A stretch of 64,000 nucleotides of DNA from Eledone cirrhosa. Lineage: Eukaryota. Both the position numbers and the translations under genes were made by a program. The stretch spans positions 234,732,001 through 234,796,000 of the forward strand of contig OZ024740.1 in the NCBI GenBank assembly GCA_964016885.1, given 5' to 3'. Within the stretch, counting starts at the first letter, position 1. Every line of letters begins with the position of its first letter. Under the pieces are notes generated by a model. The model was not told where the DNA came from. It saw nothing but the letters and a program-made list of their open reading frames with translations, and ran no database searches. Below are positions 843 through 52,099 of this stretch, piece after piece.

Positions 843-3354
843 AAAAGCGTGAAAAAATATATATGGCCACGAAAAAAAACATTAAAAATCGCGGAAGATA
901 TTTACAAATCCGCGAATATGCGGTGGTTTCCATGAACAATGCTTATAAACGTAAAAAAAATAACGTAAAATATATGCCGACAAATACGGTATATTGTTAT
1001 TTATAAGTTAGCGCTAAAAAGCGTGAAAAAATATATATTGCCACGAAAAAGCTATTAAAACATCACGGAAGATATTTACGAATCCACGGGTATGCGATGG
1101 TTTCCACGAACAATTATTAGTTAGGCTTGTAGCAGGAGTTGCCTCCCTTGTTGTGACACTCACATCACCAATAGAGTAACGCTCTCTAGACAGGAAGTAG
1201 CTGGAGTTGCTTCCCGTTGGGGTGATAGAACCCTTTTTATCACTTCCGGCAGAACCCTATAAAACGAAGAACTTTCAGCTCCCTATCTCTCATTTGCCTT
1301 TCGGACTCAGGAACGCCGCTAGCACTTTTCAGCGGTTCATAGACGAGGTCACGTGTGGTCTGGACTTCGTTTATGCTTACATAGACGATATTCTCGTCGC
1401 TAGTTCCTCTCCGGAAGAGCATATGCGCCACATGCTTCTCTTATTTCGGCGACTTCAGGATTACCGCGTTCGCGTGAATCCAGCAAAGTGTGTTTTCGGT
1501 TCCACTTCCCTAAATTTTTTAGGCCACCTCATCGACGCCGAAGGTATTAGGCCGCTCCCTCAGCGAGTTCAAGCCATACAGGAGTTACCTCCGCCTACTA
1601 CACTTCACCAGTTGCGTCACTTCTTAGGCCTAATCAATTTCTATAGGCGTTTCGTTCCTCATTGTGCTAATTTGCTATCTTCCCTTACTGACATTTTTAA
1701 AAATCGTCGTAAGAAGAATGAGGATATTTCCTTGACACAAGGACAGCTTCAAGACTTCCAGACTACCAAGACAGCACTCGTTAGTTCATCTTTGCTAGCC
1801 CACCCGGTACCAGAGGCCAAGCTTTCGCTTTGTGTTGATGCATCTGATACCGCTGTGGGAGCAGTTTTACAGCAGTCCTACGCTGAAAACCAACAACCTT
1901 TGGCATTTTTCTCGAGGAAGTTGAAACCAGCAGAAACGCGTTATAGCACGTTTGGGCGGGAATTATTAGCCATATTTCTGTCGGTGAAACATTTCTCTCA
2001 TATTCTTGAGGGGAGAAATTTTACAGTTTTTACCGACCACAAACCGTTGACCTTCGCTTTGAGGGCCAAAGCCGACAGATATTCGCCAGAGAGACAAGGC
2101 ACCTGGACTACGTTTCAGAATTTACAAACGATATCCAGCACATTGTCGGCTCGCACAACATAGCTGCAGACGCATTGTCACGTTTGCCAATTAGCTCCAT
2201 CTCGTCATCCCAGGAGATCGACTTAGGTCGTTTAGCTGCAGACGAACCTGCACTCCAATTGTTGGACACTCTTTCTGCCGAATTTGCGACTTGCATTTTC
2301 AAATATCTGCCCTTGTCCACCACCGACAGGCAGATTCTATGTGATGTATCTACGGATGCACAACGACCACTTGTTCCTGAGACTCACCGTCGAATTGTGT
2401 TCCTGGCTTTACACAACATTTCTCACCCAGGATCTGCTGCCACAGTAAAGCTCATAACAGCCAGATTCTTCTGGCCAAATATGAGGCGCGACATTGCTGC
2501 TTGGTGCCATTCCTGCATCGCTTGCCAGAAATCGAAAATCCATAGACACATCCGGACTCCACTTGGTACTTTCAGTACTCCAGATGCTCGGTTTCAACAC
2601 ATCCACATTGACATCGTTGGACCTTGGCCATTCAGCAGTGGATATTCATACATATTGACCTGTGTCGATCGTTTTTCGCGATGGCCTGAAGCCATCCCAT
2701 TACAAGACATGACTGCTGAGACTGTAGCACGTGCCCTGGTATCAGGGTGGATTACCCGCTTTGGAGTACCAACTACACTCACCACAGACCGTGGTAGACA
2801 ATTCGAGTCCCATCTCTTCTCTGAGCTCAACGGATTCGGACCACAGCCTATCATCCTGCGTCAAATGGAATGGTGGAACGATTCCACCGCCAATTAAAGG
2901 CCGCTCTTCGCGCTTATCCAGACTCTCAACGTTGGAGCGAGTACCTTCCTATTGTGTTGTTAGGAATTCGGTCATCAATAAAGGAGGACCTTGGGTTCTC
3001 CCCGGCCGAATTACTTTACGGTGCTCCTCTAGCGTTGCCTGGGCAAATGCTTGCCCCTGTTGATCTTGCTTTCCAAGATCCGCTTTCCTACGTATCCCGT
3101 CTGCGTTCTTATTTTCAGGACCTGCCGCCGATGGATACGAGGAAACAAACTGTAAAACCTGCGGTCCCGAGGGATATTGCCTCGTGGACCCATGTGTTCG
3201 TAAGGAACGATGCTGTGAGACCACCCCTCATCAATCATACTCTGGATGTAACAAGAGTAGCCTCCCTTGTCATGACAAGGGAGGCAACTCTTGCTACAGG
3301 CTCTGCGGGAAATTCCGCGAATAACCGGTACCGCGAATGCCGCTGTGTACACTG
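843..3354 (-). mobile_element. pogo/Tigger-like MITE split by a Gypsy insertion (parts 843-1127 and 3299-3354)
   Basis: Joining 1015-1127 to 3303-3354 gives the reverse complement of the element at 9849-10200 (cgaacaattatt..gaaattccgcgaataac). Ends ..gtacactg/TA. Internal duplication of 843-940 and 1016-1112. Confidence 0.7.
1128..3298 (+). mobile_element. Deleted Ty3/Gypsy retrotransposon (partial LTR, RT-RNaseH-integrase pseudogene) with inverted termini and GGCT TSD
   Basis: PFGLRNA..YIDDIL (RT), DASD..YSTFGRELLA..TDHKPL (RNase H), H-H-C-C zinc finger, [34 protein letters not shown] (integrase), broken by frameshifts. Termini TGTAGCAGGAGTTGCCTCCCTTG and CAAGGGAGGCAACTCTTGCTACA. GGCT at 1124-1127 and 3299-3302. 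Confidence 0.92.
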
Positions 3355-4446
3355 TATATATATTTGCTCTGAAATTTATATAAATTTGTGTTCATGTAAC
3401 TATAAATTGGTCAAACATAGTGAAAAAGACAGCAGCATTGGAAACGAATATAGATGCCATAAATGAAAGAAAAGGGGGAAAAGAGCAAGGACTATTAGGC
3501 AAGGGAAGAGAGAGAGGGGGAAGGGGAGAGGGTGGTAAAGTTTACACCTACAATAATTCCATTACCATCTAAGATTCATTATAAAAATATAAAGAGAGTC
3601 AGAACTTGACTGCTACTTTAATTCATCGACCCAGAAAGCTAAAAAGGTAAAGTCGACCCATAAAAAGCCGTAACTAAATTCTGCTCTACCGAATCTGCTG
3701 ATCCACCGCCTAGAAAAGTACAAGAACACATCGGATAATGTAATGAAGTACACTATGTTAAAAGTAAGACTGATGGCCATAGCTAGAAGACATATGATCA
3801 TAAGCCTGCTCGACCATTGCTGACTGGGATTAAACAACAATAACATTCCTTCGAGGAAGAGCATTGTCTAAAACTTCAATACTCACCTTTCCTCGCGATA
3901 CACAAAGTTTATTTACTTTACGACATTTTTTTAGTAAACTTAACAGGCTGGGAAAATGCACATAATTTGTTGTTATAGCTGTTGTTGTTGTCTAGCTTCG
4001 ATTAACTATGTGGTGTTATAAAAACGAACAGTTGTTATTATGACCTTCCAATTTTATCTCAGCAGTTAAGAGTTATCTCCCTTGAATGTTAGTTATTTCC
4101 CTTGTATACTAGCATGACTGAACATAAATATGTTTCGGCTGAAATTCGAACTAGAGCGTGTAAACACACAGGCCCGTGAAGAGCAAATGACAAGAACTGG
4201 CTAGTTGTGAAATGTAGGCCACACTTCAAACTACTCGTTAAATATTTTATTATTCAGTAGTAAATATATGTGATTTGTGAAAGGCTTACGAATATATACA
4301 TACGTTCTTGTAATGTACATGATGCACTTGCAAGTCATATAACAGAATAAAAGAACTAAAACTTGAGAGAGTATAGAACCCTCAAGATTTTAGGCCCATG
4401 CCAATTAATTGATTTATCTCCACTGTTATTGTCTGTAAATATAGAT

Positions 4447-4632
4447 AATTGTTTCTACTTTAGACACAAGGCCAGCAATTACCCAATACATTACTGGTAC
4501 TTTATTTTATCGACCCCGTAAGGATGAAAGGCAAAGTTAACCTCGGCGGGATTTGAACTCAGACTGTAAAGGGACGTAACTATGCTAGAAAGCATGGCGT
4601 CCAACCCTCTACCCTCTACCGATACTGCCAAT
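4447..4632 (-). mobile_element. tRNA-derived SINE, type A (representative of about 20 copies)
   Basis: Consensus TGGCAGTATCGGTAGAG..GAGTTCAAATCC (A/B boxes)..GCCTTTCATCCTTACGGGGTCGATAAAATAAAGTACCAG..GTAGAAACAATTATT. Other copies near 11980-12430, 14560, 14750, 15360-15720, 16063-16460, 17122, 18214, 22200-22500, 24201, 26068, 35153, 49858, 58855-59143, 61927. Confidence 0.85.
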
Positions 4633-5179
4633 TCACATATAGATAATGTGAATAAAACTGTGTAGTGTAACATGAGATCTACTTAGATCAAACAGACTTG
4701 TAGTTACTTGAACAACTAGGCAGATAGAACCAGAGAGATGTCGACTAAGTAGATTGACACACGGTGTTGATATTTATGAGCTAGATGGTCACAGTATATA
4801 GATATTTATTTGATAGATAGATACGGTGTATTCTTGTTGACTGAATAAACAAGATATGCTGTATGGTGTGTAGTGTGAAAGTGAGGGCATGTTATAAGAT
4901 GTAATGTGTGGCATAATGTGACGGTGCGGACATATTGTGTTGGGTGTAATGTAATAATCAAGGTGTATAGTATAGGGTTTAGTATGGTACAGAGTGTAAC
5001 CGTGGGTACATTTTATGCAGTGAGGAATGCGGTACTGTGTAGTGAGTAAGAGAGGACATGTATGGTAGGTGCAATGAAAATGTTACACTGTGTAGTATGG
5101 TGACATGGCTAATGTATTCTGTGTAGTGTGATATATTATTATACTGTGGTAGTGAGGAATTATATCCTTCGACGTTAAT

Positions 5180-6889: not shown

Positions 6890-7060
6890 CAGCGGATGTC
6901 GGATTTACCATTGTTCTTAGGTGTGCTTAAGCACAGGGCCCCGTTGGCCAGGGGGGCCTCATCTTCCTGCCCCTAAAATCTTTTACAATAATTTTTTCAA
7001 ATGTTTGGGGCCTCATAACTTAACTAGCACAGGGCCTCATTTGTCCTAAATCCGGCACTG
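6890..7060. mobile_element. hAT-like MITE (degenerate)
   Basis: Imperfect TIRs cag..cggattta / taaatccggcactg with gcacagggcc subterminal repeats. TSD not clear. Confidence 0.5.
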
Positions 7061-7176
7061 CAAACAGTACAATCGAGGATCGTGTTACCTTCACTAAATT
7101 TTTCAATTTTTCTTTCTGCTGTGATCTATCTCGAACTTTGGACATATGCTACAATATGTCTTTTCCCAAATACATG

Positions 7177-7697
7177 TTATCTCTTATACCGGTATATCTT
7201 ATCTCTTATACTGGTATATCTTATCTCTTATACCGGTATATCTTATCTCTTATACTGCTATATCTTATCTCTTATACCGGTATATCTTATCTCTTATACT
7301 GCTATATCTTATCTCTTATACCGGTATATCTTATCTCTTATACTGGTATATCTTATCTCTTATACCGGTATATCTTATCTCTTATACTGCTATATCTTAT
7401 CTCTTATACTGCTATATCTTATCTCTTATACCGGTATATCTTATCTCTTATACTGGTATATCTTATCTCTTATACCGGTATATCTTATCTCTTATACTAC
7501 TATATCTTATCTCTTATACCGCTATATCTTATCTCTTATACCGGTATATCTTATCTCTTATACTGCTATATCTTATCTCTTATACCGGTATATCTTATCT
7601 CTTATACTGCTATATCTTATCTCTTATACCGGTTTATCTTATCTCTTATACTGCTATATCGTATCTCTTATACTGCTATATCTTATCTCTTATACTG
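7177..7697. repeat. 22-bp minisatellite, about 23 copies (TTATCTCTTATAC[C/T]G[G/C]TATATC)
   Basis: Direct tandem periodicity of 22 nt. It explains the repetitive ORFs in all three + frames (7082-7798). Confidence 0.97.
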
Positions 7698-8729
7698 AAA
7701 ATTTCTTATCAGATGGCACCATCACTGCGACATTAAACCGACTCGGGTGTTCTCCAGGATTTCATTATGCCTCTCATACACTTTTACCTGTACATTAATA
7801 ACCTGTTTGCTGTCACCTCTAATAACGTATGATACTACCTTTCACTCTTGTATAACTTTTCACACGCACTCATTATCTGATACTTCACATCACACCTACA
7901 CTGCCTTCTTGAATAGAGTTCTCGACAACATCTTCCAGCATGAACATGACAATCTAATATATTTTAACAGCACAAAGATACAATTACTACTCTTAAAAAG
8001 GAAATAATCTCGTATCTTACTACTTCTTAACACACAAGTAAAACCCTTTCGAATGCGAGGCCTCACATTCTCTGTCAAGCTTTCCTGAAGCCTATTTAAC
8101 ATGGCTAAAACTATATTCACCAAATTAGCCTTGATCCCTTGCTGGCACTCTACAAAGCTCAGGTAGTGAAATATGTAAGTAAAAGGCCCTTAACTCCTGA
8201 TGGAGTCACAGGGGCGCAAATCCTGGCATACAATGTGTCTTGCGATTTTTTTAACTTGGTGGAGCCCATCCCTCTCCAAGTCGGAACACAACCGATTCCG
8301 TCAAAGAACGAGAAAATCGACCCCAGCCCTGGGCTGATACTTTATTTATCAAACTGTGAAATGATGAAAGGCAAAGTTAATCACGGTGAGATTTTAACGT
8401 AGAAGGCAGTAAGCCGGGACAAATACGGATGCCATGACGACTCAGTTAATTCTCCGCCACTCTAGTGGAATACTGTTCCCAGATATGATACAGTATTGCT
8501 GCTACATACACAAACATTCTAGATCACATCCAAAAGTAGGCATTCCGAATGATTCGCAAATACTTACTCAACAACATATTACAGCCTCTGGATCATATAT
8601 GCACGGCTTCTCCATCTTTCTTATACACACACATACACACACTCCATCGTACACCTTTCTAAAAAAGTACATCGTGCACAAAACGCCAGCATCCATAGTT
8701 TTCCTAGAGATGGCAACATAAATGGACCT

Positions 8730-9798: not shown

Positions 9799-9848
<50 letters not shown>

Positions 9849-9853
<5 letters not shown>

Positions 9854-10200
9854 TACCCCCGGCCCGGCAATCGCGGTCTCTGTTATTTGCGGAATTTTCC
9901 TTAGAACTTAATTAATAATTGTTCGTGGAAACCACCACATATTCGCGGAATCGTAAATATCTTCCGCGGTTTATTTTATGGCTTTTTTCATGACAATATT
10001 TTTTTTTTTTTTCAACACTAAATTATTAATAATTGCGAAGGACGCCCCTTAGCATCAGACGCTCCCTCTTTTTTTATTATATTTTACATTATATTTTGAC
10101 ATTTATAGGCATTTTTATGGACCACGTCCAATATTCGCGGTATTTTACTCTTCCCCGGTACTCTAGGAACCTAAGCCCCGCGAAAACCGAGGGACAACTG
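9849..10200 (+). mobile_element. pogo/Tigger-like MITE
   Basis: Imperfect TIRs (t)agtgtacccccgg..tcgcgg / ccgcgaaaaccgagggacaactg, flanked by TA. Lies about 280 bp upstream of the WASHC4 ATG. Confidence 0.65.
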
Positions 10201-10534: not shown

Positions 10535-12484
10535 GTGAGTATTCTATGTAGTTTCTTGAATAATATCTTTAGCTGGCAATATGTTTCAGGACCAATCATC
10601 GGACTAAAGTGTACATACATAAGGGTGTTATGGCTCATGCATCACGCAATGTTTACCTCACATGAACACACCCGCATTTCCACCCATCTACTCTATATGT
10701 CTTTACAATTTCAAACGCTTTATTTATATATGTTCGTACATGTGTATGCATGCATATACGGCTATTACATAGTTCGATTCGCTTCTCAACGTGAATTGTT
10801 TACCTCTTACATCGTTAATGGTCTTTGTTGTTGCTTTGCCACAAATAAACTCTGATCGAACAAACCTATGGTCAAAGTAATTCCAGTCGTGGCCCTCTCT
10901 TCTTTTTTAATATCATGGAATACATTATCCAACGTGTCACGTTTTTTAAGGCAGTAGGATGTGATTTGAAGGAGATCTGTCTGTCATTTCTAGCAGGTCG
11001 AGCAATGGCAATAGAGGTCCACTTGTTAACTCTTATGAGTTTTAATAGAATCGTGAGTTTCACAACGAAACATTCTCAACCATGTATGTAATTAACGTAC
11101 ATTATTCCTCCCTACCTTTTCACTTCTTCCTTCTGGGTCTCAGTAAAACCAGTTCCACTCTTCTTCTTGAGTGTAAATGAAACGTATTCATAGATGAACG
11201 AAATTATCGTCAGCATTACGCCTATGTAAACAATAAACCATAATGGGGTGCTTCAGTTTCGAATCATAACTGGAACGGTATTACTTCATTTATGTTTTTA
11301 GTGTCTCTACTTATTTATTTCTTCCTCTACGTTCTAAGTTCAAGTCCTGCAGGAGTCGACTTTGTTATCCATCCTTCTGTGTCGTTAAATATATATACCA
11401 GTCATATACGTATGAATTTGTATTCACAGTTGTATAAACATTCTTTCAGAATGAAAATATAAACACATAATAAATACAATTAACTATTGCTAGGAATCTC
11501 ACAAATATAACACACCAAAATATACAATCAGGGCAAGAGAAAGAAAAAAAAAGGGAAACAAAAACGACCATTAATTCACCACCAAGTGCAACAATCGGCA
11601 GTACATCACAGGGGTTAAGGAAATATTTTGAGGCAAACCAATACACTCGCAGTATTACCATTGGTGATGGCGAGGCTAAGACGCTGAAACAACCAGACAC
11701 CCTCACCGTCATCACCTGACACCTCAGTAAGGCCAGTCGCCAACAATGACAAGAACTTCGCTGTTAGCGGTCCAACACCACCTAACGCCACAGGCAGACA
11801 AAATAATTGTTTGATACATTAACCCATCCTGTCTGTGAACCTAGAAAATCACAGCAAACCTTTTGTACTTTCTATTTCCTGGCTTATATCAGCTCCAATT
11901 TTCTGATTCCTTACTGTTGGTCTTACTAGACTAACCCATGCAACCAAGTATCTGGCGTTGTGCCTATGATAAAATCATTAGGGCGGTGGATTGGCAGTAT
12001 CGGTAGAGGGTCGGACGCTATGCTTTGCAGCACAGTGCCCTTTACGGTCTGAGTTCAAATCACGCCGATGTTAACTTTACCTTTCATCCTTACGGGGTCG
12101 ATAAAATAAAGCACCAGTAAAGCACTGGGATAATTGCTGGCCTTGTGCCAAAAGTAGAACCAATTATTATTAGGTGGATCGATAGAGTGTCGGGGACAAT
12201 ATACTCTACAGCATATAGTTATGGCCCTTTACGAGCTGAATTCAAATCCCACCGAGGTTAGCTTTGCCTTTCATCCATAAAATGAAGCACCAGAGCATTA
12301 CTGATGCTTTATTTTATCGCCACCATAAGGATGAAAGGCAAAGCTAACCTCGGCTGAATTTGAACTCAGAATGTAAAGGGCCGTAACTCTATGCTGCAAA
12401 GCATGGCGCCTGATGCTCTACCGATATTGCCAAATGACAGTAAAGTTGAAACAGTAGAGAATCAGAGGAATTTGAGATAGGAAG

Positions 12485-15216
12485 TGTAGTGACCCACGTT
12501 CCGCGGGCTCACATACATTCTCTGTGCGTGATTTGGCTCAACTCAGCCAATCAGCGCCAGTAGAAGAGAATGTATCTCTGCGCGCCCTGAGGGAAAAGTT
12601 CCCGCGTTGATTTGAAGAATCAGCCTTTCGCATCCTGAACTTCGAAGGAACAGCACGTACAACATGTGACGGTGAGATTCCATTTTTAGCAGCATAGTAT
12701 ATAAATGTTATTGAGACACGAGTAACATAATAATGATGTCAACAGCAGAAATTAGAGATGAAATGTATGTTTATTTTTGTTGTAGCACAAATAATGTTTG
12801 TTAACTTGTATGGTTGAAGTTACACATAAAATGATGTTACAAAAGGGAATGTGCCATTGTGCCAGGCCCAAGGAAGGCCGGCAGGCCAAAGTGCAAAATC
12901 TCACCGTTACATGTTGTACGTGCTGCTCCTTCGAAGTTCAGGATGCGAGAGGCTGATTCTTCAAATCAATGCGGGAACTTTTCCCTCAGGGCGTGCAGAG
13001 ATACATTCTCTTCTACTGGCGCTGATTGGTTGAGCTGAGCCAAATCACGCACAGAGAATGTATGTGAGCCCGCGAAACGTAGGTCACTACAATACTCCCC
13101 CTCTAGACGTAAGACGATACAGATTATTGAATCAGCAGGAAAAAATGCTGAAAGAGCAAATCAGTGAAAAAAATAATTGAACAGAAGAATGCATGCAAGA
13201 AAAAAATGAGGTGCTAAGGGCCGTGTTGTGCTGCTGTGTCAAATGACTAGCTGTTTTGTAGTTTATACGTGACCACCAAAGGTCTAACAGAAAACGGATA
13301 AAGTCTGACATGGGCGAAGTTGCTGTTCTTACATTAAATGTTAATGGTAAGTAGCTGTGGATGAAGCTATTATGGTAGTTTACCAGTGCTGGCAAGAAGA
13401 TGATGGGTAGGCGAGAAAATGTCGGCCTCCCAGATGTATTGCCGAAAGTGCTAGGCAGCCAGGAAGGAAAAAATGGCTGGTTGCTTTGAAAAGAAAAAAG
13501 CAAGTTGAATCTGTAGGTGGGTAGTAGTTGCAGTGTAAATTCCATAATTCTGGCGAATCCACAGAAGTGGTGGAAATGCTGACAGGTCCAGTTCCATTTA
13601 TTGTTTTCCCAGTGAGTCGGGTAAGGTAACAAGATGGAGGTTGTAATGGATGATGAGTGTGCAACGAGATGCGAAGCTGTTTGAATCCAGCTGCAATTAG
13701 CAGTTCTCGTGTTGCGGTGCCTGTTTGAATCCAGGTGAATTAAGCTCTATGAGTCGCTAGCATGTGTCGGCACCTCAACCAGGTGAAAAGGGATCTCGCA
13801 GAATATTACGTTTGAAGAACATATACTAAGAACAACATGTTGGTGTGTGTCAAAGAAATGTGTGTGCATATGCAGGCATGTAATACAGCAAAGAATATGT
13901 GGGTGCAGTCATATATACAATGATAAAAAAAAAAATGAATTTTCATATAATACAGTTTTTAAAAAATAAATGTCCAAACATTGCCTGTAAAAAAAAGAAA
14001 GAAATAATTGTTTCTTAACACATAGTTCGCTTTTTCTTTTCTTTTGGATTGCTCTTACTAGGAAGCTAGTAGAGTTGTTGTTGTTGTTAAAGCAAAGTCA
14101 CAGTGAATCTTCTGTAGAATCGAAGTCGAGCGTTGAAGAGTCTAGAGTCACCAATATGCCAGTCACGTCTGACGCCATAGTGGTGAGAAGACTGATGTCT
14201 TAATTTCTCGAGTCCCTGTGGTAATGAGATAGCAGGTATGGTGGTTGCGTTGGTAAAGTTACAAGCTGCCACATCGCTATTCCCTGGTGTTGGTTAGTAG
14301 TTAACCATGTGTCGCTGCTGCTGATGTATTTGGTAGTGGTGATAGCCATGTGTTGCTGTTGATGGCTGGTAGTAGAGAAGTACTTCGTGGTAGCCATTTT
14401 GAAATTTCCTCGTGGCGTAAATTTTTTTTATACATACACTGTCAATTTTAATTTCATTTCAAAAGAAATATTTTGAACTGAAAATATTCATCACGTCGGG
14501 GTCACCATTTTTAGCAGCATAGTATATTAATGTTATTGATACACGAGTAACATAATAATTGTTTCTACTTTAGGCACAAGGCCAGCAATTACACAGTACA
14601 TTACTGGTACTTTATTTTATCGACCCCGTAAGGATGAAAGGCAAAGTTAACCTCGGCGGGATTTGAACTCAAACTGTAACATAATAATGATGTCAACAGC
14701 AGAAATTAGAGATGAAATGTATGTTTATTTTTGTTGTAGCACAAATAATTGTTTCTACGTTAGGCACAAGGCCAGCAATTACCCAGTGCATTACTGGTAC
14801 TTTATTTTATCGACCCCATAAGGATGAAAGGCAAAGTCAACCTCAGCGGGATTTGAACTCAGATCGTAAAGGGACGTAACTATGCTGGAAAGCATGGCGT
14901 CCGACACTCTACCGATACTTAATGTTTGTTAACTTGTATGGTTGAAATTACACATAAAATGAGGTTACAAAAGGGAATGTACCATTGTGCCAGGCCCAAG
15001 GAAGGCCGGCAGGCCAAAGTGCAAAATCTCACCATTACATGTACGTGTTCCTCCTTCGAAGTTCAGCATGCGAGAGTCTGATTCTTCAAATCAACGCGGG
15101 AACTTTTCCCTCAGGGCATGCAGAGATACATTCTCTTCTACTGCCGCTGATTGGCTGAGCTGAGCCAAATCACGCACAGAGAATGTATGTGAGCCCGCGG
15201 AACGTAGGTCACTACA
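12485..15216 (-). mobile_element. Non-autonomous LTR retrotransposon (tRNA-Trp PBS) with an extra inverted U3 terminus
   Basis: 5' LTR 14508-15216 (two SINE inserts). PBS 14490-14507 ATCACGTCGGGGTCACCA equals the 3' 18 nt of tRNA-Trp. PPT agagggggagtat next to the 3' LTR 12683-13091. Inverted 195-bp U3 copy at 12485-12679. Flanks GAAG/AAAG. Internal region decayed. Confidence 0.88.
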
Positions 15217-19544: not shown

Positions 19545-19930
19545 TTATGAAAATAAACCAAAGAAGCCGTCAATACATCAAAAGTCTTTATTAGCCAACA
19601 ATCTTTCGTCCTATTAAGGACTCATCAGGGCAAGTAAAGCTATAAGAAGCACTATCGGCCAATACAAGCCAAAAACTCAGAAGAATATTCTTCTGAGTTT
19701 TTGGCTTGTATTGGCCGATAGTGCTTCTTATAGCTTTAATTGCCCTGATGAGTCCTTAATAGGATGAAACATTGTAGGCTAATAAAGACTTTTGATGTAT
19801 TGAAGGCTTCTTTGGTTTATTTTCATAATTCTTCGGCTCTGTTTAATTACATTGAGCTATACCTTTACTGTCATTTCTATAATACGAAGAGGGTGTTTAA
19901 CTCCAACACACTCTAGTATTTTAATTCTTA
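19545..19930. mobile_element. Penelope-like pLTR fold-back (284-bp palindrome 19545-19828 plus right-arm extension) within (TA)n
   Basis: Near-perfect palindrome centred at 19686/19687, with a hammerhead motif in each arm and TA runs on both sides. Confidence 0.75.
19742..19779 (+). ncRNA. Minimal type I hammerhead ribozyme (mirror copy 19594-19631 on -)
   Basis: gcc CTGATGA gtcct-taat-aggat GAAA cattg TA ggc: intact core, stem II, short stem III, 3-bp stem I. Confidence 0.7.
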
Positions 19931-28235: not shown

Positions 28236-28339
28236 GTTGTATTTGAACATCTTGGGGATCTTCTCACTGTGCTCATCACTCTCGATAAAATCATTGAAAA
28301 TCAGGCACTTCTCAAGGATCATTGGACTCTATATAAAAG
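28236..28339 (+). CDS. WASHC4: WASHC4 coding exon 7
   Basis: tgcag/[34 protein letters not shown](R)/gtgagt. Confidence 0.96.
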
Positions 28340-29540
28340 GTGAGTTTCATAACTTGATGGACTCTGTATAAAAGGTGAGTTTCATAACTTGATGGACTCT
28401 ATATAAAAGGTGAGTTTCATAACTTGATGGACTCTATATAAAAGGTGAGTTTCATAACTTGATGGACTCTATATAAAAGGTGAGTTTCATAACTTGATGG
28501 ACTCTATATAAAAGGGGAGTTTCATAACTTGATGGACTCTATATAAAAGGGGAGTTTCATAACTTGATGGACTCTGTATAAAAGGTGAGTTTCATAACTT
28601 GATGGACTCTATATAAAAGGTGAGTTTCATAACTTGATGGACTCTATATAAAAGGTGAGTTTCATAACTTGATGGACTCTATATAAAAGGGGAGTTTCAT
28701 AACTTGATGGACTCTGTATAAAAGGTGAGTTTCATAACTTGATGGACTCTATATAAAAGGTGAGTTTCATAACTTGATGGACTCTATATAAAAGGTGAGT
28801 TTCATAACTTGATGGACTCTATATAAAAGGGGAGTTTCATAACTTGATGGACTCTATATAAAAGGGGAGTTTCATAACTTGATGGACTCTGTATAAAAGG
28901 TGAGTTTCATAACTTGATGGACTCTATATAAAAGGGGAGTTTCATAACTTGATGGACTCTATATAAAAGGGGAGTTTCATAACTTGATGGACTCTGTATA
29001 AAAGGGGAGTTTCATAACTTGATGGACTCTGTATAAAAGGGGAGTTTCATAACTTGATGGACTCTATATAAAAGGGGAGTTTCATAACTTGATGGACTCT
29101 ATATAAAAGGTGAGTTTCATAACTTGATGGACTCTATATAAAAGGGGAGTTTCATAACTTGATGGACTCTGTATAAAAGGGGAGTTTCATAACTTGATGG
29201 ACTCTGTATAAAAGGGGAGTTTCATAACTTGATGGACTCTGTATAAAAGGGGAGTTTCATAACTTGATGGACTCTGTATAAAAGGGGAGTTTCATAACTT
29301 GATGGACTCTGTATAAAAGGGGAGTTTCATAACTTGATGGACTCTATATAAAAGGGGAGTTTCATAACTTGATGGACTCTATATAAAAGGTGAGTTTCAT
29401 AACTTGATGGACTCTATATAAAAGGTGAGTTTCATAACTTGATGGACTCTATATAAAAGGTGAGTTTCATAACTTGATGGACTCTATATAAAAGGTGAGT
29501 TTCATAACTTGATGGACTCTGTATAAAAGGGGAGTTTCAT
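28323..29540 (+). repeat. 35-bp minisatellite, 35 units, whose first unit spans the exon 7/intron 7 junction
   Basis: Unit TGGACTCT[A/G]TATAAAAGG[T/G]GAGTTTCATAACTTGA. Manual count gives 17 AG|GTGAGT units and 18 AG|GGGAGT units. Confidence 0.97.
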
Positions 29541-29630
29541 ATCTTCATTATAAGTTGTCCTTCTCTCATAGCAACATTGTTCGAGATTTTATGAGTACCA
29601 AGGAAAGTGTTTTCTAACTTAGTATGAAGA

Positions 29631-36419: not shown

Positions 36420-39400
36420 TCTTAGTCTTAGTTCCTCCAGTCCCTTGTGGAACATTGGGCAACGAGCTTCCTCCACTTGATCCTGTCACTGGCGGCCCTT
36501 CTAGCACCTCTCCATGTAATTCCCATCTCCTGCAGGTCCTCCCTGAATGTGCTCTGCCATGTTTTTCGTGGTCTTCCCCGTTCTCTCCTGCCACCTTCTG
36601 GTACCCAATCCATGGCAATATGAGCAGGTCGATCTGTCGGCAAACGAAGGATGTGGCCCGCGAACTGCCGTTTCCTTTTCCGGACAATATCCCTTAACCT
36701 CTCCAATCCTGACCTCCTCATCACTTCCTCGTTGATAACTTGGTCTCTCCATGAAATTTTCAATATGGTCCGAATGCAACGACGGTGGAATACATCGAGC
36801 TTTTTAGATACACTTTCCGTACTCTTCCATGTCTCACAGGCATACATCGCTGTTGGTACTACAATGGACATGTAAACACGGAATTTGACGGCGTTGCCGA
36901 TGGAACACCTGGACCATACCGGACAGAGTCGCTGGAAGACCGCCGCTGTTTTTCCCAGCCTTGTGCTCACATCTACCTCAGCATCCCCATCGTCAGAGAT
37001 GTTGCTGCCAAGGTATTGGAAGTGGTTTACACATTCAATGTTACGCTGACCAACCATGATGGGAGGATTTGGAGGGTCACCTGTCGACATGGTCTTGGTT
37101 TTTTCACAACTGATGCGCAGGCTAACTTTCTCTGCATTGTCATTTAGAACGTTTGTCATCTCTTGCAGATCTTCTCGGAAATAGCCTATCACTGCGATGT
37201 CATCGGCAAAGTTCAGGTCGCTTAATCTCCTCCCATCCCAACTGATGCCAAAACGAGGGTCACTCATTGTCTTCTTCATGATGAAATCGATGACAATGAG
37301 GAAAAGGAAAGGCGAAAGGATGCAGCCTTGTCGAACACCCGTCAAGATGTCAAACATTTCCGTGTTTCCGTCCTTTGTCCTAACGCAGCACCTGGAATGT
37401 CGGTACAGCGACCTGAAGATGTTAATATATTTCTCTGGGACACCGTAGAGTCTTACAATTTTCCACAATGACTCCCGATGAACACTGTCGAAAGTTTTCC
37501 TGAAGTCAATGTAGTTGACAACAAGGGACTTGTGGAACTCCCGACATTGTTCAATGATATTTCGGAGAGTGAAGATCTGCTCTGAACAAGACCTTCCACT
37601 GCGGAAGCCAGCCTGTTCATCTTGAAGATGACGATCTACTTCTGCTCTCAGCCGGTTCAGGATGACTGCAGAATACCTTCCCTGGCACTGATAGCAACGT
37701 GATCCCTCTCCAGATGTTGCAGTCGCTGAGACAGCCCTTCTTCGGTAGTGGTACAATCACTCCATTTTCCCAGTCCCCCGGGACCTCTTCTTCTTGCCAA
37801 ATCACATTGCATAAATGGGTGAGCTGCTCCTCTATTACATCCTTGCCGTGCTTCAGAAGCTCTGCAGGAATCTCATCCAGCCCTGCCGCTTTGTTATTCT
37901 TTTGGCAGCGGATGGCCTTGGTCACCTCAGCTCTTGTGATGTCGTCTAGTCGTACATCCAGCCGGTAGCTCGCTTCCACCCAGTCAAGCTCGAAGACTGT
38001 GTTGGGGGATGGCTGATTGAGGACCTCACAAAAGTGTTCATTCCACCTCTGGGCCTGCTCTTCACTGGCTGCAAGCATCCGACCATCTTTGCTCTTGATT
38101 GGCAAACTGCTTCCACTTCGTCCTCCAGTTAGCTCTCTGACGATCCGGTACAGCGTCTTGGAATCATTTCGATCTGCTGCCACCTGTACCTCTACAGCCC
38201 GATCTTCTAACCACTGGCGCTTGTCTTTTCGACAGCACTTCTTTACTTCCTTGTCAAGACGTTTGTACTCTTCCTTTGTCCACTTCCTTCCATTGCTGTC
38301 GAGTTTTGGTTTGATCTCTTTTGTTCTTAACATCCTTCCTCTCGTCAATGAGATTCCATGAAGTACTGCTGATCCACTGTTCCCGGTTGGTCCCCCTTCT
38401 TCTACCAATAACTACATCAGCACTCGCCCTGACCGCTTGATCAAACATCTGCCACTGGTCTTCACGGTTCTGTGAGAGCTATAGTTCTTGGAACTTATTC
38501 CTGATCTCCAGGTAGAATCCCTCTGACGTGCCTTGGTCTTGCAGGCTTGCGACAGCATATGGCCTCACGGTCTTATTTGCTTTGTTTTTCTTCAACCTCA
38601 AGCGGATTTTTCCAGCCACAAGATGATGGTCAGATCCGACGTCTGCCCCTCGGTAGGTGCAAACATCCAAGATAGAGGAGCGCCACCTCGTGCCAATGCA
38701 TATATAATCAATCTCATTCCTGGTGTTGCCATCAGGGGAAGTCCATGTCATCTTGTGAATCCGCCTATGGGTGAAGAATGTATTCCCGATGGAGAGGTTG
38801 CTGATACTGCTCAGGGACAGCAACCATTCCCCGTTGTTATTGGTGGAATCAGCTGAACAGCGGGGGCCAATGGCTGAATGCATTTCTCTCCTGTCTCCAT
38901 CTAGCTTGGCATTGAAGTCACCAATCAGCAGCCTAATGTCTGACCTGGGTGTTTCCTCTAAGACATCCTGTAGTTGGATAAAGAAGGTAACCTTATCTTC
39001 ATCTGAGGCAGCTTCAGTCGGGGCGTAGACGTGCACTACGGTCACCTTGACGAACCTTGTGCTCAATCTGGCAGTAATAATGCGTTCACTCACTGGCCTC
39101 CATCCCACAAGAGCCCGTGATACATCTCCGGTGAGGATGATACCAACTCCGTGGACATGGTGGTCATCATCACCTGTGTAGAGAATAGTCATGTCTCCGC
39201 CGTCGAGTTGTCCCCGTCCTGTCCACCTCGCCTCGCTGATGCCCATGATGTCAAGGCGATACTCTCTCATCTCCTTCAGCACCTGCTCCATCCGCCCGTC
39301 CCAAAAGAGCGTGCAGACATTCCAGGTGCCTACTCTTGTGTTTGATTTGGCGTTGAAGATAGGACTTATCCGCGGTCGGGCCTCCTTTCGGCTTTGACCC

Positions 39401-39558
39401 GGCCCCATCATAGGTGCATCTCTTTTCTGCTGCTGGGTATCAAAATGTTTTTTTCTCGTCGTTTCTGTAGCGGTGAAAAGTTTTTACGGGGGTAGGGCTG
39501 CTAACCCCACGCCCCAACCCTCCTCCTTTCTCAACCGGGCTTGGGACCGGCTAAGGCA
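36420..39558 (-). mobile_element. Apparently full-length RTE-clade LINE (APE + RT; stop and frameshifts)
   Basis: APE motifs VGTWNV..GISE..VYAPT..GDFNA..IDY..SDH (38479-39411). RT motifs WRGITLLSVPGK, EQAGFR, GVRQGCILSPFLF, FADD, YLGS. (TAAGAC)n tail. TSD GAATT[A/G]TAAAG at 36409-36419 and 39559-39569. Confidence 0.95.

Positions 39559-50149: not shown

Positions 50150-52099
<1,950 letters not shown>

Follow-up and report, generated by a model that had tools for sequence, protein, structure and literature searches.

How does an LTR retrotransposon come to be bounded by U3 on both of its sides? We address this question for an insertion at positions 1128-3298 of a 64,000-nucleotide stretch of Eledone cirrhosa DNA (hereafter the window, meaning the whole stretch that was analysed). 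Both termini of the insertion are U3 and are flanked by a 4-bp target-site duplication, and its right end is a palindrome centred on a self-complementary 12-mer. A canonical LTR insertion carries direct LTRs, with U3 on the left and U5 on the right; here, the right end is an inverted U3.

Anatomy and family placement of the insertion

The insertion is a broken Gypsy copy comprising half of a reverse transcriptase (RT), an RNase H and a truncated integrase (Table 1), with Pfam matches to RVT_1, RT_RNaseH, RT_RNaseH_2, Integrase_H2C2 and rve, so that RT and RNase H are still carried, as a previous sequence-only reading of this DNA had stated. Its left end begins with the LTR start, TGTAGCAGGAG..., followed by CCAAT and TATAAAA and then by a deletion into RT, again as had been described; the coding segment that follows lacks a primer-binding site (PBS), gag, protease and the first half of RT. 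The pol frame is broken near 2085 at the end of the RT/RNase H segment, and near 2830 and 3230 within the integrase, which is cut off inside its GPY/F motif. The copy is dead, degraded and shortened. Within the left LTR fragment, the LTR start is repeated about 68 bp further in (1129-1156 vs 1197-1225), and an LTR variant shorter by 11 bp near 1169 occurs in many reads of sequencing run X6.

Table 1. Positions in the window of the insertion's parts, its flanks and the comparison element E1.
Feature	Position	Strand	Remarks
Left half of interrupted host repeat	997-1123	+	
Left target-site duplication	1124-1127	+	GGCT
Left LTR fragment (U3)	1128-1294	+	TGTAG start
CCAAT in left LTR fragment	1168-1172		
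TATAAAA in left LTR fragment	1258-1264		
Initiator-like TCATTT in left LTR fragment	1290-1295		
RT C-terminal half and RNase H	1295-2088	+	Pfam; 66% identity to P0010
Integrase	2089-3246	+	H2C2 about 2373-2540, core about 2586-2825
Inner arm	3247-3278	+	U3 positions 1-32 in normal 3' LTR orientation
Self-complementary 12-mer TTGTCATGACAA	3267-3278	.	U3 positions 21-32, common to both arms
Outer arm, right end of insertion	3267-3298	-	Inverted U3 positions 1-32
Right target-site duplication	3299-3302	+	GGCT
Right half of interrupted host repeat	about 3303-3358		
Comparison element E1	12485-15216	-	

GGCT stands on both sides of the element, and the duplication is 4 bp long, not 5 or 6. A sister copy of the interrupted host repeat lies at 9845-10032 on the minus strand, and the two flanks align to adjacent stretches of it (10032-9909 and 9905-9845) with space between them for about one 4-mer. 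Since the flanks match neighbouring stretches of the sister repeat, the host repeat was cleanly interrupted by the insert, which bears out the earlier claims of a perfect duplication and of a host repeat restored by removal of the insert.

Judged from its sequence, the element belongs to the known CsRn1 clade of Ty3/Gypsy. Its best homologues are Gypsy polyproteins with about 55-66% identity over RT/RNase H, many of them from tapeworms and one from Octopus sinensis. The CHCC (CX2HX9CX3C) Gag motif was found in 16 of the 120 top homologues and CCHC in none of them. For the RT/RNase H tree (a quick IQ-TREE run of 91 rows with SH-aLRT and no bootstrap), loci with <1800 bp upstream were dropped, which kept 82 of 130; in this quick tree the element nests in a 63-row clade with an SH-aLRT of 99, with an Octopus sinensis protein close by. 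CHCC is carried by 44 of the 63 rows inside the clade vs none of the 28 outside, the clade being recognised by CHCC and Trp-PBS labels in a tree that holds no named CsRn1 or Kabuki sequence. The three nearest neighbours show no CHCC in the available sequence, and in the element itself gag is deleted. A Trp-PBS is present in E1 and, by a short pattern, in 35 of 54 clade loci, and is likewise deleted in the element.

According to the available text of Bae et al. (PMC2582038), elements of the CsRn1 clade have a primer site for Trp, duplicate 4 bp of target and carry LTRs whose ends are modified to TGT...AAA or TGT...ATA; the Trp PBS and the non-CA U5, for which the sequence-only reading had proposed a check, had thus already been published. 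With the described members CsRn1, Kabuki, PwRn1 and AgCR, the element shares the RT-RNase H-integrase order, together with its tree position among CHCC/Trp-PBS elements, the TGT start and the 4-bp duplication. Unlike them, it ends on the right in an inverted U3 rather than U5, and has no PBS, gag or polypurine tract (PPT). The clade has been reported in 9 of 12 cephalopods, in the part of the survey available (PMC6238403).

Several other repeats were observed in the window. A dispersed repeat of about 190 bp, which we take to be an octopus SINE, has many copies window-wide (e.g. 4445-4636 and 12290-12433) and, with the nearby Octopus sinensis protein in the tree, points to a probable octopod host; endonuclease- and RT-like frames at 36431-39483 (minus strand) and 3-644 are presumably fragments of non-LTR retrotransposons; and tandem arrays with 22-bp and 70-bp units occupy 7039-7805 and 28323-29548, respectively.

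The palindromic right end and the joins

The right end at 3247-3298 is a zero-loop palindrome in which 24 of 26 positions pair, vs a best of 19 and a mean of 14.6 pairs in shuffled controls of the element (n = 100); when folded as DNA it reaches -20.8 kcal/mol (z -8.1), which none of 200 shuffles equalled. Compared with the left end, the outer arm agrees in 23 of 24 and in 28 of 31 positions and the inner arm in 21 of 24, which accords with the earlier description of this end as the LTR start followed by its reverse complement. That description had left out the nature of the centre. The palindrome is laid out as 20+12+20, with arms that overlap on the 12-mer, and the left end goes on matching the arms past the palindrome centre through position 31. 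In 4 of 4 runs, from 3 studies, other copies of the LTR begin with 32 letters that match the outer arm and then pass into the LTR body, and the arms consequently overlap by 12; as read from these alignments, the palindrome centre is a motif of U3 itself. An assembly artefact as the source of the palindrome was rejected in view of the mismatches in the arms and the intact duplication.

Two further palindromic structures occur elsewhere in the window. At 50222-52099 lies a 1.9-kb fold-back with 530-bp arms at 91.5%, inside which 51118-51507 is a perfect palindrome with 194-bp arms and a 2-base loop; either a young fold-back element or an artefact of the assembly could account for it. At 19545-19828 lies a zero-loop palindrome with 142-bp arms at 96%, resembling a hairpin MITE.

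Immediately inside the palindrome, the integrase is joined to the inner arm exactly at TGT, and the PPT is absent. In nine relatives, the GPY/F motif and TGT lie 189-384 bp apart, the stretch between them closing with a G-rich tract and then a short spacer, and by this comparison about 190-380 bp of integrase tail, PPT and spacer are missing from the element. We read this as a second deletion, also new relative to the earlier description, that has taken the integrase tail and the PPT from the right end. At the left join, RT homology begins at 1290-1295, 32-37 nt downstream of the TATA box, which would place the end of the left LTR fragment near the predicted cap site and U3/R border, a placement made from TATA spacing only and at a distance slightly long for a cap site. 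Read depth in run X5 stays at LTR level through the 1218-1296 bin (490 vs 54 in the next bin), and the LTR goes on past 1223 in the sequencing runs.

Other copies of the family were surveyed in RAD-seq and contig runs, where the family is multi-copy and otherwise ordinary-looking. None of the pieces listed spans the element; pieces from other copies depart from the window sequence at 3230, before the palindrome is reached, and a single stack of reads continues upstream from the LTR start into a run of purines. None of 25 close proteins whose tails were compared reads into the palindrome, and the LTR-start pattern had no match in genome contigs. No second copy of the deleted form was found in the window, the RAD-seq and contig runs, the proteins or the genome contigs.

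A neighbouring element and control loci

The sequence-only reading had held that an inverted-U3 terminus occurs twice within 15 kb, in two families with different LTR sequences. The neighbouring element, E1, is real, and its LTRs are indeed unrelated to those of the studied element (local score 9 vs a shuffled mean of 9.6); its target-site duplication, however, matches at only three of four positions (GAAG/AAAG), and no gag or pol similarity was detected in its 1.4-kb interior, where a gag profile built from 50 relative segments also found nothing (best E 0.29). E1 is ordered as 5' LTR, Trp-type PBS, non-coding interior, PPT, 3' LTR and inverted U3. The 5' LTR has no inverted-U3 arm and ends in ...CTAAAAA, without CA, directly before the Trp-type PBS at 14507. 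The 3' LTR runs 4 bases into spacer and primer site, followed by 195 bp of inverted U3, with no clear microhomology at the join. The Trp PBS, the PPT with its 3-nt spacer and the AAA-type U5 end are shared with the CsRn1 clade; having these signals but no detectable gag or pol, E1 is classed as a non-autonomous element with CsRn1-type signals. Its three U3 copies are 93-95% alike in pairwise comparison (182/192, 179/192 and 186/195), and being about equally distant from one another, they fit a single event. The two cases in the window differ in arm length and in junction, and E1, as the uncollapsed form, is the cleaner example. The 5' LTR of E1 was later interrupted by two short insertions of the repeat that is common in the window.

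The proposal that the inverted end is a trait of the lineage can be set against control loci from other genomes. Scans of public contigs recovered 151 related loci, including 21 candidate full copies, 17 of them drawn from a pair of related assemblies, without a known cephalopod among the sources. Ordinary direct-LTR elements make up 19 of the 21 (13 resolved automatically and six by eye). All 13 automatically resolved relatives have direct LTRs and a perfect 4-bp duplication; their exact terminal repeats are no longer than 5 bp, with at most 13 of 24 positions matching, vs 23 of 24 in the element. Four of the copies resolved by eye have perfect duplications and two, probably one locus, match at three of four positions; for the remaining two candidates (L112 and L127) no duplication was resolved. 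Five copies with a TA-ended, non-CA U5 have perfect duplications, so that the lack of CA at U5 does not make a U3-U3 product inevitable. Inverted TG..CA ends were found at none of 20 clade loci with long flanks by a test that detected the window element. Among 45 PPT-to-TG starts with downstream sequence, an inverted U3 followed two, both belonging to one tail-to-tail duplication in which each arm has its own PPT and pol. This locus, L021, was ruled out as a second inverted-U3 case on account of its two PPTs and two pol copies. As judged from these sequences, none of them known to be from the host, the inverted end is not supported as a trait of the clade.

Several loci from these scans are recorded in their own right. 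In L021:1-6216, two 99.5% identical pol-PPT-LTR halves face each other across about 760 bp. L116:7589-10123 is a CsRn1-type copy with a 2.5-kb internal pol inversion between ordinary LTR ends and a perfect duplication. The 71 Gypsy-type RT loci L017-L087 lie in contigs filed as bacterial or archaeal, presumably as host DNA in bins. The Trp-PBS scan gave seven loci in prokaryote contigs and nine in viral contigs; none of the nine was related to the element by tblastn, and we take them to be avian retroviruses from their appearance. A protein scan of viral contigs yielded no relatives among 54 candidates.

Origin of the two-U3 form

Because it adjoins the target-site duplication, the inverted U3 end is most likely the integrated end, as the sequence-only reading had also concluded. 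We consider it probable that the insertion derives from a one-off cDNA with U3 at both ends, a by-product of reverse transcription assembled from surplus plus-strand pieces, and that the family's integrase, working in trans, inserted it as a single unit. The perfect duplication outside the inverted arm, the restored host repeat, and the full U5 and first PBS bases that E1 keeps before its inverted U3 all argue for such a molecule. In Ty3, the available account describes a PPT that primes more than once and the existence of displaced plus-strand strong-stop DNA (PMC5371799); plus-strand strong-stop strands begin at the U3 start and are therefore a possible source of a second U3 end. Template-switch products are described as becoming integrated with a duplication (available text of PMC1950507). 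In our proposal, spare plus-strand strong-stop DNA would have supplied the extra U3 end, and the 52-mer may have been reached by either of two routes: strong-stop strands annealed or folded back at the 12-mer during reverse transcription, and the product of strands paired in this way switched onto an RNA fragment; or a longer, E1-like inverted repeat later collapsed by replication slippage, a possibility given that the two arms hold the 12-mer as a direct repeat. In E1, the plus strand would have run through U5 into the last bases of the primer and switched onto a partial U3 strand.

The exact TGT join fits an end-to-end switch as well as an integrase-made join like those of autointegration. 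In every version, the integrase of an intact copy would have used two U3 ends and left the 4-bp duplication. The integrase/TGT and U3/RT joins coincide with natural ends of replication intermediates, a position that favours an origin inside the particle; the three frame breaks suggest that the copy could also be old enough for later deletions to have made both internal joins. Cruciform cleavage is another possible cause of a join at a palindrome's foot. Under the model of LTR replication, an inverted arm beyond the normal RNA end is not inherited via RNA and has to be remade each time. As the element has no primer site, its further replication is not expected. Against this account stand the placing of the cap site by TATA spacing only, the unseen U5 end and primer site of the family, the lack of clear microhomology at the E1 join and, as set out below, the occurrence of a second case in the window. 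It is a proposal from sequence, with a putative cDNA intermediate.

Partial likenesses to known systems can be drawn. The complex LTR insertions that Sabot and Schulman (2007; available text of PMC1950507) ascribe to abnormal template switching likewise combine an aberrant cDNA with a single integration event and are recognised by flanking duplications and matched outer ends; they contain three direct LTRs with U3 and U5 as outer ends, whereas both outer ends of the element are U3 and inverted. In the deletion and inversion circles formed by autointegration, an LTR end is joined precisely to coding sequence, as at the integrase/TGT join, but such circles are extrachromosomal dead ends, whereas the element is chromosomal and flanked by a duplication (PMC7197481, as far as its text is available). 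The nearly precise excision of Tn10 type proceeds by slippage between short direct repeats at a long inverted repeat (PMC12524634, in the accessible part, citing d'Alencon et al.). Slippage of this kind would leave a short palindrome, like the 20+12+20 found here; Nearly precise excision leaves a palindromic remnant of about 50 bp. Tn10, however, is a bacterial DNA transposon, and in our retroelement slippage would take out no more than a loop, and at one end alone. DIRS-1, in the descriptions available, is also a retroelement with inverted terminal repeats but uses a tyrosine recombinase, whereas the element has a DDE integrase (rve and Integrase_H2C2). A literature search that was thin in subscription and older virology journals found no prior description of integrated U3-U3 Gypsy copies, its matches being DIRS inverted LTRs, autointegration circles and direct-orientation complex insertions only; the accessible portions of PMC6894440 and PMC12471100 contain nothing on inverted ends.

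Two of the alternatives to a one-off by-product would make the inverted end a regular feature. Two-U3 cDNAs might be the usual integrated product in this animal's CsRn1 families, for example with a weak U5 end selected against or with a programmed extra strand transfer that rebuilds the inverted U3 in each cycle. The recurrence of the structure in each of the two LTR-type insertions found in the 64-kb window, which belong to unrelated LTR families and lie within 15 kb, counts against a rare accident and for such a host trait, as do the CA-less U5 ends of E1. We nevertheless think a host trait unlikely in view of the control loci (none known to be cephalopod), among which inverted ends are lacking, the only inverted U3s trace to one duplication, and TA-ended U5s integrate with perfect duplications, and in view of the unlike arm lengths and junctions of the two window cases. 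The possibility that the family simply has an ordinary LTR with a terminal inverted repeat of 20-32 bp, whose 3' LTR interior was deleted between the 12-mer copies, had been raised by the sequence-only reading itself. It dispenses with aberrant integration, and the family's U5 is unseen; yet the short terminal repeats of the 13 relatives speak against it, E1 has no such arm in its 5' LTR, and no primer site adjoins the arm among the matches listed (24 of 492 loose ends), which is weak evidence, so that we regard it as quite improbable.

The other two alternatives concern the later history of the copy. If its U5 end had been overwritten by a templated inversion from U3, or altered by inner rearrangements, the event would have had to stop exactly at the duplication, and the same explanation fails for E1, where the inverted U3 was added beyond kept U5 and PBS bases; the copy is old and rearranged, and L116 shows that an internal inversion can lie between normal ends in a relative, yet we hold this course of events to be very unlikely. 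The suggestion of an LTR-to-Ginger intermediate, in the form of a nascent Ginger-like DNA transposon moving by its inverted repeats, draws on TGTNR termini, a duplication of 4 bp and a Gypsy-like integrase set between inverted repeats, all of which the element shares with Ginger1 and Ginger2, and on the statement in the available text of Bao et al. (PMC2836005) that the route from LTR element to DNA transposon, and with it the origin of the Ginger1 repeats, is unclear. That text describes Ginger1 as having 40-270 bp repeats, CCGG/CCGT targets, a YPYY motif and an OTU or Ulp1 domain, and as grouping near Athila/Tat. The element has repeats of 24-32 bp, the target GGCT and an affinity to CsRn1 rather than to Athila/Tat; visual inspection of the 75 residues preceding H2C2 showed no YPYY, and OTU/Ulp1 gave no Pfam match in an element whose C-terminus is cut off. 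It also retains the RT and RNase H that Ginger1 and Ginger2 lack, its truncated integrase is out of frame, and the absence of a second copy of the deleted form from the sources searched speaks against mobility. In the region of the integrase tail, identity to integrase proteins reaches 72%, with 68% for the Gypsy polyprotein P0010. By the features compared with the published description, the element falls outside Ginger and is not supported as an intermediate, and we consider transposition by its inverted repeats extremely unlikely.

The one-off by-product with two U3 ends thus remains our preferred reading, and the finding is important only if the two-U3 form proves frequent in the host. A far-reaching version, which we judge distinctly unlikely, is that in this animal's CsRn1 families two-U3 cDNAs are a regular integration route, seeding integrase genes that are bounded by TGT...ACA inverted repeats and flanked by 4-bp duplications, and so a one-step source of the terminal repeats with which a Gypsy element could turn into a Ginger1-type DNA transposon. 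The palindromic 12-mer of U3 is a candidate hot spot for fold-back or collapse. If the preferred reading is true, animal genomes preserve traces of LTR-retrotransposon cDNAs whose integration used a U3 at either end, a form that tools seeking direct LTR pairs would miss, and a symmetric U3-U3 donor is acceptable to a Gypsy integrase in vivo. Such by-products could then be a one-step source of Ginger-like inverted repeats, and would offer an alternative to the scenario suggested for Ginger1 in the available text of Bao et al. (PMC2836005), in which two opposed LTRs derive from separate insertions.
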